Part shown: in pieces, positions 1,002 through 20,803 of the stretch
Numbering within the stretch: position 1 is the stretch's first letter
Layout: each line of letters starts with the position of its first letter
Assembly (NCBI GenBank): GCA_031372065.1
Contig: JANMKN010000313.1
Coordinates: forward strand, 1-20,803
DNA: 20,803 nucleotides
Source of the DNA: Abditibacteriaceae bacterium
GTDB lineage: Bacteria; Armatimonadota; Abditibacteriia; Abditibacteriales; Abditibacteriaceae
Reading direction: 5' to 3'
Notes under the pieces: generated by a model
Databases searched by the model: none
What the model was told of the DNA's origin: nothing
Seen by the model: only the letters and a program-made list of their open reading frames with translations
Translations under genes and position numbers: made by a program

Positions 1002-1721
1002 TTAGCGAGCAGAGTCGCCCCAGATTTCGGCTTCGATGTATTGGTTTTGCGGGTCGCTGGTGTTGCCACGGCTGTAAAGGCGAATGTAACGCGCTTTTTG
1101 TGGCTTGTCAAATGAAATCCACTGGCCCTGATAAGTATCGTAAAACTCGCGTTGTTTCCCCGCGCCCAAACCGGACGAATTGTCCTGATCGTTGTTGTAA
1201 AGCGTGGTGACTCCGGTCACAAAATCGGCATCGTTGGAAGCCTGCACAACCACATCGCGATAAACGCGCGTGTCGCCGTGAAAATGCCAAAGCAAAACGC
1301 CATACGTTGTTGTGGCTTTGCCGAGATCAATCTGCACCCATTGCGTGCCGGGGCCAAGTTCGACCCAGTTGCCTTCGGTGCCTTCTTTGACGCCGTCGGT
1401 AATCATGGAAAGCGTGCCGATAATGGGAAAATCATCGCTGGCCGTCACGGTTTTGCCTTTGGAAACGATTTTGGCGCCTTTAGGCAGATAAACAGGCGGA
1501 CGTAATTTTTCTGTCGGCGGCGGTGCCGTTGTGTCTCTTACCTGTTTCTGCGTGCCCTGATAACTTTTTCCCGGCAACTTAAACGAGACTGCGGTTTTGC
1601 CGGTGGCCGGTGCCTTTTTGACCGGCGCCTTTTTGACCGGTGCGGCGTGCGCCGAATAAATAGACGGCACCGCAGTTAATGCAGTGAGCGCCAGGGCGAA
1701 TTTCGTTGTTCCAAATTTCAT
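1002..1721 (-). CDS. Secreted discoidin / F5/8 type C domain protein, paralog 2
   Basis: Signal peptide ending in AHA, KKAPVKKAP linker, domain nearly identical to paralog 1 (943-bp offset), GGGAG RBS. Confidence 0.82.
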   Translation of the reverse strand: MKFGTTKFALALTALTAVPSIYSAHAAPVKKAPVKKAPATGKTAVSFKLPGKSYQGTQKQVRDTTAPPPTEKLRPPVYLPKGAKIVSKGKTVTASDDFPIIGTLSMITDGVKEGTEGNWVELGPGTQWVQIDLGKATTTYGVLLWHFHGDTRVYRDVVVQASNDADFVTGVTTLYNNDQDNSSGLGAGKQREFYDTYQGQWISFDKPQKARYIRLYSRGNTSDPQNQYIEAEIWGDSAR

Positions 1722-1776: not shown

Positions 1777-2451
1777 TTAAAGATTGGGAATCTGCCAATC
1801 AATTTCGCCTTGGCCCGCTTCGCGCAACGCGGCATTGATTTGCGAAAACGGTTTCGAGCCGAAAAAGCCGGTGTGCGCCGAAAGCGGCGAGGGATGCGCC
1901 GATTCGACGATGACATGGCGGCTTGTATCAATCAGCGGCACTTTTTTGCGCGCGTAGCCGCCCCACAACACGAAAACGACGCGCTCTTGCTTTTCGTTGA
2001 CCGCTTTTAAAACGGCATCAGTGAACTTTTCCCAACCTTTGCCTTTGTGCGAATTGGCCTGATGCGCCCGCACCGTTAAAACCGCATTGAGGAGCAAAAC
2101 GCCTTGCTGCGCCCACGGCATGAGATAGCCGTTATTCGGCACTTTGCAGCCCAAATCGTCGTGCAATTCTTTGAAAATGTTGATGAGCGAGGGCGGTTTG
2201 GTATTGCCCGGCAAAACCGAAAAACTCAGGCCGTGCGCTTGGCCGGGGCCGTGATAAGGGTCTTGGCCGAGCAGAAAAACTTTGACGCTTTCGTAAGGTG
2301 TGGCTTCGAGCGCGCCGAACACTTTGTCTTCGGGCGGAAAAATCGTTTGTGAAGCGCGTTCGGCGTCTACAAAGTCGCGCAGCTTTTCAAAATACGGCTT
2401 TTGCAGTTCGTCGCCGAGCGCGCCCTGCCACGATTCCGGTAGTTGTTGCAT
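1777..2451 (-). CDS. ung: Uracil-DNA glycosylase (family 1)
   Basis: Motifs LGQDPYH, AHGLSFSV, PPSL.NI, QGVLLLN, LWG and SAHPSPLSA. Start trimmed to MQQLPESW (224 aa), the normal size for the family. Confidence 0.97.
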   Translation of the reverse strand: MQQLPESWQGALGDELQKPYFEKLRDFVDAERASQTIFPPEDKVFGALEATPYESVKVFLLGQDPYHGPGQAHGLSFSVLPGNTKPPSLINIFKELHDDLGCKVPNNGYLMPWAQQGVLLLNAVLTVRAHQANSHKGKGWEKFTDAVLKAVNEKQERVVFVLWGGYARKKVPLIDTSRHVIVESAHPSPLSAHTGFFGSKPFSQINAALREAGQGEIDWQIPNL

Positions 2452-2658
2452 GAGAAATGTCAGTTTCCTTTCGCGGTAAATCCTTCGGTTTTCGGTCTTC
2501 TGCGCTTTGCCAATGCTCGATGCCATACCAAGTTTCGGCGAATTGGAGCGGAGTATAAGTGTAAAAGCCCATGAGTTTGCGTCCCGCAAGGCGATTTTTT
2601 ATCCCGTGTTGATTTAATTCGCAGGCACGCGCCACTCTTGAAAACGAATTCCTGGAGT

Positions 2659-2904
2659 ATTTTTCGTCAAGAATGCCGCTGGCGATGCTCCGCCAACTCA
2701 TTTTTGACGAGAAATGGCTTGGGGGACGCTCCCCAGTGTAATTTTTCGTCAAAAATGCCTCGCGGAACGCTCCCCAAGTGTATTTTTCATCAAAAATGAG
2801 TTTTCCGACGCTTCCCAGAGTCATTTTTGATGAAAAATGCCTCACGGGACGCTTCCCAAGTGTATTTTTCATCAAAAATATCTGCGGGGACGCTCCGCTC
2901 ACCT
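2659..2904. repeat. Tandem array of six 41-bp units with a 16-bp palindromic core
   Basis: The core ATTTTT-(CRTC or GAYG)-AAAAAT starts at 2659, 2700, 2741, 2782, 2823 and 2864. Each is followed by 9 variable nt, a GACGCTYCSC-like block and 6 semi-variable nt. Confidence 0.95.
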
Positions 2905-2916
2905 CGTGGGAACACG

Positions 2917-3624
2917 CTATCCAATCGCCCGCGCAATGCCGAACGCAGCAGCAGCAGCGGCGCCGCCGACGAGCGCGGTTTGAAGAGCGGCTTTGCTCAT
3001 AGCCACTCCGGTAAATCTGCCTTTGACGGCGCCGAAAACGGCTAAGGCTAAAATCGTCACGCCAACGGAGATTTTTAAGGCGTTAGGCGCCTCTTTGATC
3101 AGCATATAGGGCGCCAAAGGAATGAAGCCGCCGACGACATAAGACAATGCGATGGTGACGGCGCTTTGCCAGGCGCGACTTGGTTGGGGTTCTTCGAGGC
3201 CCAGTTCAAAGCGCATCATAAAATCCACCCATTTTTGCGGGTTTTGCGACAACGCTTCGACAATAGGTTCGGCTTGTTCGATGGTCAAACCATAATCGGT
3301 AAACACTTCGCGCACTTCGGCTTTTTCGCGCTCTGGCAGTTCCACGACTTCGCGTTCTTCGCGGCGGCGTTCGCTGGCGTAGTGTTCGGCTTCGCTGCGC
3401 GCCGCCAAGTAACCACCGAGGCCCATGGCTATGGAACCGGCGGCGATTTCGGCGAGGCCCGCTGTCACGATGATTTTCGTGGCGGAAATTGCGCCCGAAA
3501 GTCCGGCGGCCAACGCGAAAGGCACGGTTAATCCATCGGCCATGCCGATAACAATATCGCGCACCATTTCGCTGGATTGGAAATGTTCTTCAACGTGCGG
3601 AGTTGGATGGGGAATGCGGGCCAT
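2917..3624 (-). CDS. VIT1/CCC1 family iron/manganese transporter
   Basis: RDIVIGMADGL, AGSIAMGLGGYL, Glu-rich cytoplasmic segment, MMRFELG, five hydrophobic helices; GAGG RBS. Confidence 0.93.
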   Translation of the reverse strand: MARIPHPTPHVEEHFQSSEMVRDIVIGMADGLTVPFALAAGLSGAISATKIIVTAGLAEIAAGSIAMGLGGYLAARSEAEHYASERRREEREVVELPEREKAEVREVFTDYGLTIEQAEPIVEALSQNPQKWVDFMMRFELGLEEPQPSRAWQSAVTIALSYVVGGFIPLAPYMLIKEAPNALKISVGVTILALAVFGAVKGRFTGVAMSKAALQTALVGGAAAAAAFGIARAIG

Positions 3625-7370: not shown

Positions 7371-8582
7371 ATGAATTTTCAAGTCCGCCGGAATGATGTG
7401 CGAAACTTTTGGAGCGAAGCTCTGGTTGTATGGCTGATCTTTGTGGCGATGGCCTTTATGAGCCAAGAAGCAAAGGCCGGTGCTATTGGACGATTTAGTT
7501 TGCCTTACGTGATGCCGAACTCGAATCTAATAGTGAAAGGCTCTGTTCTCTGGGTCACTGAAAATTTGGATGGCGACGACATCCTACACGCTGAAATCAA
7601 AATTGACAGCGTTTTGAAGGGGAAATGGGAAACTGGCAACCTGTTTTTGCAGTTTCCGGCTCAGAGTAAGGCGAATTTGATAGGCAGGATAGTTGATACT
7701 TTAGCTAAGGACGAATACGCTCTCTTTTTCCTGAAAACGGATGGCGGCATTGTTCGCCCTGTTGATGAACAGCACATCAAGCTGCCGATTCGTCCGGGAC
7801 GCGTGCCGATGCCCGATGAACCCAACGAGACAGAATCGTTAATTCGTGACGAACTACTTTTTACGGCTTTTGGGCCATCAACTCTTTACTCAAAAGAAGA
7901 TGAAGCAAAAAAAGAAAGAGCAAAACAGCGTTCTGTCTGGGCGCCCTTCGGCATTTATTCGATGAAAATAGAAGCGGTGCGGCAACTGGGTTACCTCCCA
8001 GCCGCACCACAAACTTTGACTTTATTGGAGTCGTTAGCCTCCAGTCCGAATAGTGACGAACAAGCTATAGCTATTGCGTCCCTGCTGAATTTAAACCAAG
8101 CGAGTGTCTTGCCAATGGCTGTTAATTATTTGAAATCTGAGTCGCCAAAAGAACTTTTTCAGCCTTACACGATTGGTCATCCGAAAGATTGGGTTACGCG
8201 CGCAATTAGGAGTATCAAGAGCGTGGAAGCCATTGAACCATTAAGTGAATTGTTAAATTATCCAGAATCCCGTGTGCGGGAATCAGCCATTTGTGCTCTG
8301 CGACAAATTGGGCAGATAATTAAAGAACCGGGGCGCCCGCTAAAAGACTTGCGAGAAGGCAAAACAATCCCCTTTCTGGTCAGGGCGTTGGACGATTCAA
8401 GTCCTGAAGTCCGCTTGCAGGCAATCTGGGCGCTTTCCGAAATTACCTCAAAAAATCATTGGTTCCCGAACTATCGGTATCAAGATAAGGATTTTAATCC
8501 TGATGCCGAAAAAAAGATTATTGATCAATGGAAAGAGTGGTGGCGTGTTGAAGGCAGGGTTCTTTTTTATTCACCTGTTTAA
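7371..8582 (+). CDS. Secreted HEAT-repeat-containing protein
   Basis: Signal-like N-terminus ending in AKA; HEAT-like units AIEPLSELLNYPESRVRESAICAL and IPFLVRALDDSSPEVRLQAIWAL; C-terminal WKEWW. Confidence 0.78.
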   Translation: MNFQVRRNDVRNFWSEALVVWLIFVAMAFMSQEAKAGAIGRFSLPYVMPNSNLIVKGSVLWVTENLDGDDILHAEIKIDSVLKGKWETGNLFLQFPAQSKANLIGRIVDTLAKDEYALFFLKTDGGIVRPVDEQHIKLPIRPGRVPMPDEPNETESLIRDELLFTAFGPSTLYSKEDEAKKERAKQRSVWAPFGIYSMKIEAVRQLGYLPAAPQTLTLLESLASSPNSDEQAIAIASLLNLNQASVLPMAVNYLKSESPKELFQPYTIGHPKDWVTRAIRSIKSVEAIEPLSELLNYPESRVRESAICALRQIGQIIKEPGRPLKDLREGKTIPFLVRALDDSSPEVRLQAIWALSEITSKNHWFPNYRYQDKDFNPDAEKKIIDQWKEWWRVEGRVLFYSPV

Positions 8583-8664
8583 AACACGAAGTCATGCGCC
8601 GAAAACACGAGGTCAGGCACCAAAAACACGAGGTCAGGTGCTGGAAACACGAGGTCAAGCACTC
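8581..8664. repeat. Four 21-bp tandem repeats (plus a degenerate fifth)
   Basis: AAAACACGAAGTCATGCGCCG / AAAACACGAGGTCAGGCACCA / AAAACACGAGGTCAGGTGCTG / GAAACACGAGGTCAAGCACTC. Confidence 0.92.
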
Positions 8665-8927: not shown

Positions 8928-10016
8928 ATGAGCCAGAAATGGAAAGTGGTTGGCATCAGTTTCGATCATATGCACATGGGTGATTTGCTGCGGCAAGTCC
9001 ATGAACATCCGAATGCGCAAATCGCCGGAATTTGCGACGATAACCCTGATAATGCCGAAAGCGTGCAGCGCGTCATCAGCAATTTTTCAATTGCGCCGGA
9101 GCGCGTTTTTACTGATTACCGAAAGTGTCTTGAAGACACTAAGCCCGACATTGTTGTGCTTTGTCCAGCCACAGCGCGACATGGTGAATACGTCGGAAAA
9201 GTTGCGCCGTTTGGTGTTCATTTGCTGGTCGAAAAGCCGTTTGCCGCGACGCTGCAAGAAGCCGACGCCATGATTGCCGCCATGAAAAACAGTGGCAAAA
9301 CCATGATTATCAACTGGCCTCTGGCGTGGTATCCGCCGCACAACTCCAGCAAGCGTTTGATTGACGAAGGTGTTATCGGCGAGGTCATCGAAGTGCATTA
9401 TTACGATGGCAATCGCGGCCCGATGCGCCACGTTGCCGACAAAATCGAAATCAGCGAAGCCGAAGCGACGGCGCGCAAAAATGCCAGTTGGTTTTATCAA
9501 AAAGACAAAGGCGGTGGCTCGCTGCTCGATTATCTCGGTTACGGCACCACGCTTGGCACTTGGTTTCATGGCGGCGTGGCGCCTCTTGAAGTAACGTGCA
9601 TGGTGGATAGCCCCGCAGGTTTGGAAGTGGACGAACACTCGATTACGATTGCGCGCTACCAAAAAGGCCTGTCCAAATTCGAGACGCGTTGGGGCACATT
9701 TACCGATCCGTGGACAAATCAGCCGCAGCCCAAATGCGGTTTTCTTATCGTCGGCACGCAGGGCACCATTGCCAGTTACGATTACCAATCCACGATTCGC
9801 GTGCAAACGCAATCGCATCCCGAAGGTGAGGTTCTGCCCGTGGATGAACTGCCTTATGAAAAATCGAATCCTATTGCCCATTTGATTGACGTTTTAGAAA
9901 ACGGCAGCGAAATTCACGGCCCGCTAACGCCTGAAATCTGTCGCATCGGCCAACAAATCGTGGACAGCGCCGTGTTGAGCGCTAAAGAAAAACGCACTGT
10001 TGAATTGGTTAAATAG
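8928..10016 (+). CDS. Gfo/Idh/MocA oxidoreductase
   Basis: Atypical Rossmann start (GISFDHMH), VEKP, GGGSLLDYLGY. ATG 8928 preferred because ATG 8892 overlaps the -10 element. Confidence 0.88.
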   Translation: MSQKWKVVGISFDHMHMGDLLRQVHEHPNAQIAGICDDNPDNAESVQRVISNFSIAPERVFTDYRKCLEDTKPDIVVLCPATARHGEYVGKVAPFGVHLLVEKPFAATLQEADAMIAAMKNSGKTMIINWPLAWYPPHNSSKRLIDEGVIGEVIEVHYYDGNRGPMRHVADKIEISEAEATARKNASWFYQKDKGGGSLLDYLGYGTTLGTWFHGGVAPLEVTCMVDSPAGLEVDEHSITIARYQKGLSKFETRWGTFTDPWTNQPQPKCGFLIVGTQGTIASYDYQSTIRVQTQSHPEGEVLPVDELPYEKSNPIAHLIDVLENGSEIHGPLTPEICRIGQQIVDSAVLSAKEKRTVELVK

Positions 10017-10018
10017 AG

Positions 10019-10105
10019 CGCAAAATTCGCAAATCCGCGCGAATTTCCGTAAATATTTTTGGAAAAATTCGCGTGGATTTGCGAAATTTTGCGTGGATTT
10101 GCGTT
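10019..10105. repeat. Intergenic inverted repeat built of 9-10 bp CGCAAAT-type units
   Basis: 10019-10046 (CGCAAAATTCGCAAATCCGCGCGAATTT) pairs with 10065-10093 (one gap, one mismatch); an extra TGGATTTGCG unit follows. Confidence 0.8.
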
Positions 10106-10118
10106 CTATTCAAAAGTC

Positions 10119-13555: not shown

Positions 13556-13565
13556 AGTGCGGACA

Positions 13566-13638
13566 AGTGGTGAGCGATGAGTGAAAAGTGAAAAGTAGGA
13601 GACAGTTACTCTTCACTTTTTACTCATCACATTTCACT
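13566..13638. repeat. Inverted array of heptamers (AGTGAAA / TTTCACT)
   Basis: 13576-13597 pairs with 13607-13628 (20 of 22); each arm consists of 7-bp units. Confidence 0.8.
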
Positions 13639-14101
13639 CGTCTTCTTTGCGTTCGGCGGGCGAATGGCGCAGGATATAGCTTTCAAAGAAGGCGCGATAA
13701 GGCGAATTGGTGGCGGGAGCAATGCCGAGTTTGGTGCCTTCTTCGAGCGTTTTTTCAAGGCTCCAACCATAATCAATCGCCAGATGCAGCAGCATCAAAA
13801 TGCCGGCGCGGCCTCCTCCTGCGCAGTGCGCCACCACGGGGGGCGCGTCATCGCTGTCCACGGCTTGAATGAAGCGTTGCACGGCGGCGTCATCAATGGT
13901 TTGGGGCGTGATGGGAATGGCGGCGTAATTTAGGCCAGCACTTTCCACGAGTCGCTCTTCGTCGGGCACAGTGCCATCTTCGTCGGCGGGGCGCAGATTA
14001 ATCAGCGTGCGAAAACCCGTGGAAGGAATGTCTGTGAGTTCCTCTTCGGTGGGCTGTCCGGCAATAAACAGGTTGGGCGCGATTTGACGCAGGTTTTTCA
14101 T
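13634..14101 (-). CDS. Protein-tyrosine-phosphatase-fold protein (DUF442 / sulfurtransferase-like)
   Basis: AGQP, GFRTLINLRP..E, and HCAGGGRA (CX5R loop); GGAG RBS. Confidence 0.85.
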   Translation of the reverse strand: MKNLRQIAPNLFIAGQPTEEELTDIPSTGFRTLINLRPADEDGTVPDEERLVESAGLNYAAIPITPQTIDDAAVQRFIQAVDSDDAPPVVAHCAGGGRAGILMLLHLAIDYGWSLEKTLEEGTKLGIAPATNSPYRAFFESYILRHSPAERKEDE

Positions 14102-20047: not shown

Positions 20048-20052
20048 AATTT

Positions 20053-20115
20053 GCCTCCGGCTTCCTGCCTTCAGCTTCCCGCCTTCGGCTTCCCGCTTCC
20101 CGCTTCCTGCCTACG
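20053..20115. repeat. Nine tandem heptamers (GCYTYCN)
   Basis: GCCTCCG GCTTCCT GCCTTCA GCTTCCC GCCTTCG GCTTCCC GCTTCCC GCTTCCT GCCTACG; the last unit overlaps the stop codon of the orphan gene. Confidence 0.9.
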
Positions 20116-20491
20116 GATTCGGTGGCGTTGCCGGGCTACCCTGCTCTGTCGGGCCGGTGATACGATCTAACAAGGCTTCTTCGGCCTTGCCACGCAGAGC
20201 GCCGCGCAAAAGGGGTAGTAAGCCTTTGTTTAAAGCGTCTAACGCTGCGCCGTCAGCATCCATTTCAATCAACAACTGCACAATGGCTGTGATGTGACCT
20301 TGATAGGCCGTAGTTTTACCCTTGAGCGATTGAACTAAGGCCGCGATAGTCGCCATCTCGTGATCGGGCAAGTTTTGGTATTTGGTGCCTAATTGCCCCA
20401 ATACGCTGACGCCATCATCGCCGCGATCCACGATTTCCGTCAAATCCGAGTCCGTCTTTTGCCGCTCATACGGCACTGCAATGTCTGCCAT
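20111..20491 (-). CDS. Hypothetical 126-aa alpha-helical protein
   Basis: Strong GAGGAGG SD 6 nt before ATG 20491; amphipathic helices and a Pro-rich tail; downstream terminator. Confidence 0.8.
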   Translation of the reverse strand: MADIAVPYERQKTDSDLTEIVDRGDDGVSVLGQLGTKYQNLPDHEMATIAALVQSLKGKTTAYQGHITAIVQLLIEMDADGAALDALNKGLLPLLRGALRGKAEEALLDRITGPTEQGSPATPPNP

Positions 20492-20553
20492 TTCTGGCCT
20501 CCTCAAATATGAATTCCCTACCACGCAGGCAGGGTTACGACCAAAAATTCCAT

Positions 20554-20803
20554 TTTTCCCGCCAAGAAATCAAGAAAACTCACTCAGGTTTCTACTTTTC
20601 CCGCTGGGAAATGGTGCTACCTGACAAAGAAATCTCGTTTTCCCACTCAGATTTCTTGCTACCTGACTCAGGTTTCTCGCTACCTGACAAGGAAATCGAC
20701 TTTCCTCAGTGAGAAATCTCGCTACCTGACTCAGGTTTCTGCTTTTCCCACTGAGAAAACTCGATCCCTTAGTGAGAAAACGCCCTTTCCCACTAAGAAA
20801 AGC
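20554..20803. repeat. Degenerate 21-bp tandem array, at least 12 units, truncated by the window end
   Basis: Units start at 20554+21k with no indels; CTACCTGAC occurs at 20617, 20659, 20680 and 20722; TTTCCCRC-type units are interspersed. Confidence 0.93.

Follow-up and report, generated by a model that had tools for sequence, protein, structure and literature searches.

The six-unit 41-bp array at positions 2,659 to 2,904 of the window, the 20,803-nucleotide stretch of Abditibacteriaceae DNA analyzed here, is a gene-less member of an undescribed class in which an array is paired with the gene for a protein. The mechanism set out below for this class is a proposal. Across the class, 41/42-bp arrays go with two-module genes and 21-bp arrays go with one-module genes. 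The window array has the class features of a 41/42-bp period with dyad-symmetric units, and belongs to a sequence family in common with a gene-linked array on contig C207 of the same genome (G000, in which the window contig is C41).

The 41-bp array and its second copy

The initial annotation described six gapless units of 41 bp at positions 2,659 to 2,904, to which no strand is assigned. This description was borne out, as were the six 9-mers quoted for the variable block, and the adjacent 41-bp steps are unrelated to the units. Each unit consists of an AT-rich 16-bp core followed by a GC-rich 25-bp linker that itself forms a loose dyad, so that there are two dyads per unit about 20 bp apart. 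The consensus unit gave a dyad z of 4.7. The core had been called a 16-bp palindrome; its 6-bp arms are indeed palindromic (98.5% of cells paired), but the 4-base centre is present in both orientations. The linker hairpins reported at the same time are present, although their registers differ and units 3 and 4 hardly fold (-2.9 and -1.6 kcal/mol).

The array is confirmed as a real feature. A Logan contig, from a run that is possibly the source sample, showed 0 differences over positions 2,200 to 3,229, and two further runs of the same study covered 2,607 to 2,757 and 2,724 to 3,400, also with 0 differences. No sigma-70-like promoter was found within positions 2,400 to 3,000, and no RNA dataset containing the array was listed among the sequencing runs.

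The core and the 41-bp period were searched for genome-wide and in relatives, as the initial annotation had suggested. One other homologous copy was found, made up of five units and an additional core, at G000:C207:5463-5683. The array was not found in 60 relatives, where the core-spacer-core pattern occurred 0 times. Each of the 11 units from the two arrays matched their own profile with E values of 1e-10 to 1e-6, partly by construction, and the next-best other locus had an E value of 0.04. The window and C207 arrays are 83% identical over 184 bp and align from the first core onward. The homology starts exactly at this core (positions 2,659 to 2,674, no strand assigned), and no flank common to the C41 and C207 copies was found. 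Unit order is kept between the copies, units 1 to 5 matching at 36, 29, 32, 34 and 27 of 41 positions, although the pairing at unit 5 is not a best match. Unit 4 has an identical 9-mer in both arrays, while window units 3 and 5 are identical to each other at 35 of 41 positions. The mean identity of the 9-mers was 4.36 of 9 for the 11 units compared with 2.89 ± 0.17 when shuffled; for the window units by themselves it was 4.0 compared with 2.81 ± 0.32, with a shuffle maximum of 4.07. The 9-mers thus vary between units, as initially stated, but they are not independent, being related variants that recur in the C207 copy. It is very likely that the window array is a displaced duplicate of the C207 array.

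A CRISPR-like array with unique acquired spacers was rejected, the 9-mers being interrelated and common to two loci. The initial annotation had offered a processed RNA resembling TIGR arrays as one of two branches. According to the available parts of two reports on TIGR-Tas (PMC12045711; bioRxiv 10.64898/2026.09.09.750476), those arrays comprise 5 to 15 units, in each of which two conserved blocks likewise alternate with two variable ones. This layout, together with a variable block of 9 nt (PMC12045711), is the resemblance that would be explained by an orphan guide array of TIGR-like or CRISPR-like type whose spacers were acquired. However, the unit here is 41 nt compared with the 36 nt given there as typical of TIGR, and the variable blocks are common to both copies and inherited between them. 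Six C-9-D intervals of box C/D type were counted on both strands compared with 3.4 in shuffles, in scattered rather than phased registers. The absence of a Tas/Nop gene, noted in the initial annotation, was upheld: PF01798 gave 0 matches in the 94%-complete genome, with a positive control in 4 archaea, and the flanks encode UDG and VIT1. Covariance analysis of the 11 units gave no signal beyond shuffles, 274 of 500 and 150 of 500 of which reached the score in the two registers. No Rfam family matched at its gathering score, the matches being sub-threshold miRNA/snoRNA hairpins. The processed-RNA branch is consequently not supported, and a guide array is hardly credible. The 9- to 12-mers of the variable blocks are too short for an informative target search.

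The window locus

The array had been placed upstream of ung, the uracil-DNA glycosylase gene (positions 1,777 to 2,436, minus strand), which proved to be a neighbour only. Between the two lie the remains of a decayed host gene, about 220 bp long. Positions 2,437 to 2,650 (minus strand) are the internally deleted 3' remnant of a gene of approximately 1,100 residues (tblastn E 9e-9; DNA alignment 103 compared with 5.8 ± 2.9 for shuffles), which is intact 5' of ung in G003, one of three genomes of the same genus (G001 to G003). Since the remnant is the 3' end of the G003-type gene, the array marks the break point of that gene, and its nearness to ung is incidental because it sits at this truncation. 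Moreover, ung is present and the array absent in all three same-genus genomes; in G001 and G002 an ABM gene adjoins ung via a short spacer, with neither array nor VIT1 gene. In the window, the VIT1/CCC1-family gene (2,917 to 3,624, minus strand) ends 12 bp from the array, and no such gene was found in G001 to G003 with the window gene as query.

A gene of the helical/Fn3 family described below is absent directly downstream of the window array, where the flank is the remnant of another gene. One marginal 29-residue tblastn match to that family falls within the array (E 0.005, 82 queries). An inverted unit-like patch lies within the remnant (2,579 to 2,603, minus strand) and was reached by 5 of 500 shuffles in one of four comparisons; in the G003 orthologue it was not significant. 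The patch was possibly, on weak grounds, templated from the array.

The initial annotation had argued that 41 is not a multiple of 3 and that unit length is free of coding. The first point is correct, but six units of 41 bp together are a multiple of 3, and a 171-codon open frame (2,387 to 2,902, minus strand; coding score near zero) spans all six units, continues into the remnant and overlaps the start of ung. The possibility was considered that the window copy was retained because it preserves translational coupling, by way of a frame that runs uninterrupted from the end of VIT1 into ung. Only 12 of the 720 possible orders of the six units leave this frame open, as do 5% of resampled arrays; none of the three minus-strand frames of the C207 copy is open, and all eight indels of the remnant relative to G003 are multiples of 3. 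However, the test was post hoc and the coding score was 0.04 to 0.07 per codon compared with 0.97 for ung. No clear ribosome-binding site was seen, and the in-frame indels may be older than the truncation. Retention for this purpose is highly unlikely.

Several other features were observed in the window. A palindromic REP/MITE-like element of about 100 bp, at approximately 10,010 to 10,115, has many matches in G001 to G003. Positions 59 to 829 and 1,002 to 1,721 (minus strand) are tandem duplicate genes with 84% likeness across 300 bp. An F5/8 type C domain is present in the second, and G002 apparently has one copy. An inverted repeat with 36-bp arms lies at 13,562 to 13,642 and a 7/14-bp tandem repeat at 20,052 to 20,120.

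Array-linked genes in this and other genomes

The C207 array ends 111 bp 5' of a gene for a 310-residue protein with two helical modules and an Fn3 domain, the latter a weak C-terminal match that is the sole Pfam signal of the protein. An iterated profile seeded with only this protein identified 11 long paralogues (about 305 residues), 6 short paralogues (about 205 residues) and 3 Fn3-only matches. The N-terminus of the long form is a duplicated module of approximately 105 residues (module 1 compared with module 2, hhalign P 94% over 101 columns), and a single module is present in the short form (hhalign P 86% against module 2; controls below 0.5%). The AlphaFold model of the C207 protein has two like modules followed by Fn3, with a pLDDT of 96; the module is predicted to be a short helix, a helix of about 54 residues and a short helix, and then comes Fn3.

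Sequence searches of Pfam, NCBIfam and PDB returned Fn3 only, as did fold searches with the whole model, and Foldseek with the helical part alone gave no match at E ≤ 0.001. The best structural matches of the helical part are generic bundles (Z 9.7, rmsd 2.7, 94 aligned), which settle neither a new nor a known fold. A word-indexed homologue search recovered only the C207 protein itself, and HMMER on representatives gave 1,166 matches, many of them Fn3-only. For a possible link between DUF6261/HagB genes and 42-bp repeats upstream of them, no support was found in the literature covered. An Atlas lead pointed to DUF6261 (0.83, 32% of members); PF19775 (DUF6261) matched 0 of 82 members, and the corresponding genome search was silent, as was its control. 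The family proteins are probably cytoplasmic because a hydrophobic N-terminal window occurs in just 3 of 88 by a crude test. They are net acidic on average (K+R minus D+E about -4; 21 compared with 40 in P0001), despite which several of the conserved columns are basic. The distribution of the long form is patchy, with occurrences in 3 of 351 genomes of the phylum.

A 41/42-bp array lies no more than 600 bp upstream of nine of the 11 long-form genes, the other two being located at contig edges, and all 6 short-form genes have a 21-bp array upstream. An array lies within 400 bp of 14 of 15 family genes compared with 177 of 4,249 other genes. Other array-linked helical subfamilies break this rule of period and length (322 to 328 residues with 21 bp; 127 residues with 42 bp), and no cross-profile link of these subfamilies to the Fn3 family was found, the best P being 21%. 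An intact pair from another subfamily is present in the window itself, where a 21/42-bp array (20,532 to 20,783) lies 91 bp 5' of an unannotated 126-residue gene (20,111 to 20,524, minus strand) with two array-linked paralogues, on C102 and C368. Elsewhere, a multicopy element of about 260 bp (G000:C212:8240-8500) lies between a family gene and its 42-bp array.

Relatives of the gene were collected at 80 GTDB loci, mostly from Verrucomicrobiota and also from Planctomycetota and Armatimonadota. The 12 loci with less than 450 bp of upstream DNA were left out and 68 were assessed, kin included. The best lag was 41 to 43 at an identity of at least 0.55 in 36 of the 68 upstream regions, compared with 1 of 60 downstream and 2 of 58 far-upstream control regions (lags 40 to 42). 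The remaining loci were below threshold (30 of 68) or had a lag of 16 (two). The pooled autocorrelation of the upstream regions peaked at 41, 42, 84, 82 and 83. Upstream similarity was seen in 15 of 17 pairs with protein identity above 75%, 18 of 45 at 60 to 75% and 1 of 758 below 60%, a relation that also follows from shared descent alone. Dyad-symmetric units were found in 19 of 28 (41 bp), 26 of 39 (42 bp) and 14 of 25 (GTDB) cases compared with 19 of 188 for 21 bp; 10 of 35 arrays, having fewer than 2.5 copies, were dropped from this test. Together, the dyad, lag and upstream comparisons indicate that period and position are conserved while the letters are not. At one further genome (G029), two family genes are split or have a stop; one (L039/L045) keeps its 41-bp array, and the other (L041/L047) has none in the short stretch of upstream DNA covered.

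Of 20 gene-linked arrays of 40 to 42 bp, 17 contain inverted blocks, compared with 12 of 150 random segments. Such blocks count in favour of an element acting at the RNA level, in which transcription of the array would yield a long hairpin leader or a repeat RNA for the helical protein to bind. The minus-strand RNA of the window array folds at -97.7 kcal/mol (z -6.2), and three terminator-like stems are located in the array. Any palindromic repeat would fold in this way, however, and no covariation was seen. Furthermore, the 21-bp units are mostly non-palindromic, and the periods of 21 and 41/42 agree with the pitch of B-DNA, 10.5 bp per turn. An RNA-level element is unlikely.

Gene-less arrays and a proposed docking role

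The genome contains 319 arrays, of which 265 are without a linked gene and 54 are linked to array-associated helical genes, the latter count being partly circular because the gene groups were seeded from array neighbours. A gene-less relative exists for 33 of the 54 gene-linked arrays, and only 54 of the 265 orphans are in a family with a gene-linked member. Two orphans (C85 and C222) are insertions of approximately 320 to 400 bp in short spacers conserved in relatives, and three others are located at synteny breaks. Just 2 of 236 orphans have a gene stub that is oriented away from the array. Two arrays (G000:C98:12229-12334 and L184:1505-1809) are followed by only the first 30 to 35 codons of a family gene, the 35-codon stub being in another genome, and are gene-loss intermediates. 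No second copies of the G001 and G351 arrays were found, indicating that a partner site is not required.

Flanks differ between families. In one 42-bp family (G000:C365, C19, C326 and C16) the copies have a sharply bounded distal flank in common, beyond which the DNA differs per copy; the end of this flank presumably resembles the core of an integron recombination site. Some other array families also have flanks in common between copies. The orphan on C85 (L033) and the gene-linked array on C219 (L022) have about 24 bp of distal flank in common. Within the window, a 21-bp array at 8,581 to 8,664 is without a family gene, and its flanks are non-syntenic in G001 to G003.

The number of orphans, the two insertions and the rarity of stubs would all be accounted for by a selfish or neutral palindromic minisatellite, MITE-like, that spread within this lineage from the upstream regions of these genes by DNA-level copying and of which the window copy is an inert product. 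Minisatellite MITEs with 23-nt (BrickBuilt) and 41-nt (464/PgRS) units are described for P. gingivalis in the available part of PMC4596501; as described there, they are likewise intergenic, lineage-specific, multi-copy tandem arrays. The likeness is drawn from the description of those elements. Unlike them as that part presents them, the window copy has no leader or tail and no terminal inverted repeats, nor a common flank, and the class is tied to a gene family. Moreover, such a minisatellite leaves unexplained why a period of 41/42 or 21 persists across phyla despite turnover of the letters, why period follows module number and why the arrays are placed upstream and not downstream. As an account of the arrays it is doubtful, though it retains some weight, and for the window copy it can be compatible with a docking role of the gene-linked copy.

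The second branch of the initial annotation, phased protein-binding sites about four helical turns apart, fared better. Period, upstream position, module link and dyads fit it indirectly, and the sites are putative. We judge the chances to be about even that such arrays are rows of double-stranded DNA docking sites, at near-whole-turn spacing, for a candidate binder, the protein of the downstream gene. This row of putative duplex sites is inferred from the period of about two or four turns, the module link, the flipping dyad centres and the fixed upstream position. The net acidity of the proteins and the exceptions to the length rule in other subfamilies count against the docking role, as do the 30 of 68 GTDB loci without a lag at threshold; the gene-less copies are non-obligate. 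Each module would read one half-unit of about 21 bp, and the protein would cover the array upstream of its gene, probably limiting its own transcription. Unit variants may arise via slippage, conversion and small inversions between the palindromic arms. On this view the window copy would be either a stray site at which the C207 protein acts in trans or a leftover without function. A more specific form of the docking proposal is possible but tentative: in a widespread system, a rod-shaped helical protein would gauge the length of its site, using one module for two turns and two modules for a palindromic four turns, with a separate array sequence for each paralogue and gene-less copies serving as trans sites to bridge, silence or organise distant loci.

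Helically phased repeats upstream of the gene for their binder are known from centromere and operator arrays and iterons, such as ParR-parC, TubR-tubC and Rep iterons. The present arrays resemble these in having phased repeats directly 5' of the gene for the presumed binder and a locus-specific sequence. However, ParR-parC-type binders are ribbon-helix-helix or winged-helix proteins, whereas long helical modules with Fn3 are predicted here, and neither a gene for a partner ATPase nor one for a replicon was noticed on C207. In addition, there are dozens of chromosomal paralogues, the period follows module number and binding is putative. No description of the array-plus-gene layout was found in the literature covered, which lay outside subscription journals and supplements.

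The significance attaches to the system, and the window locus alone may be a leftover. C207 and C41 provide a natural pair, in which one protein has a home array and a displaced, 83%-identical copy. If the binding is true, the family would represent a DNA-binding architecture without a curated family, a simple modular ruler with many orthogonal protein-array pairs per genome, and a large class of lineage-specific bacterial minisatellites would be explained.
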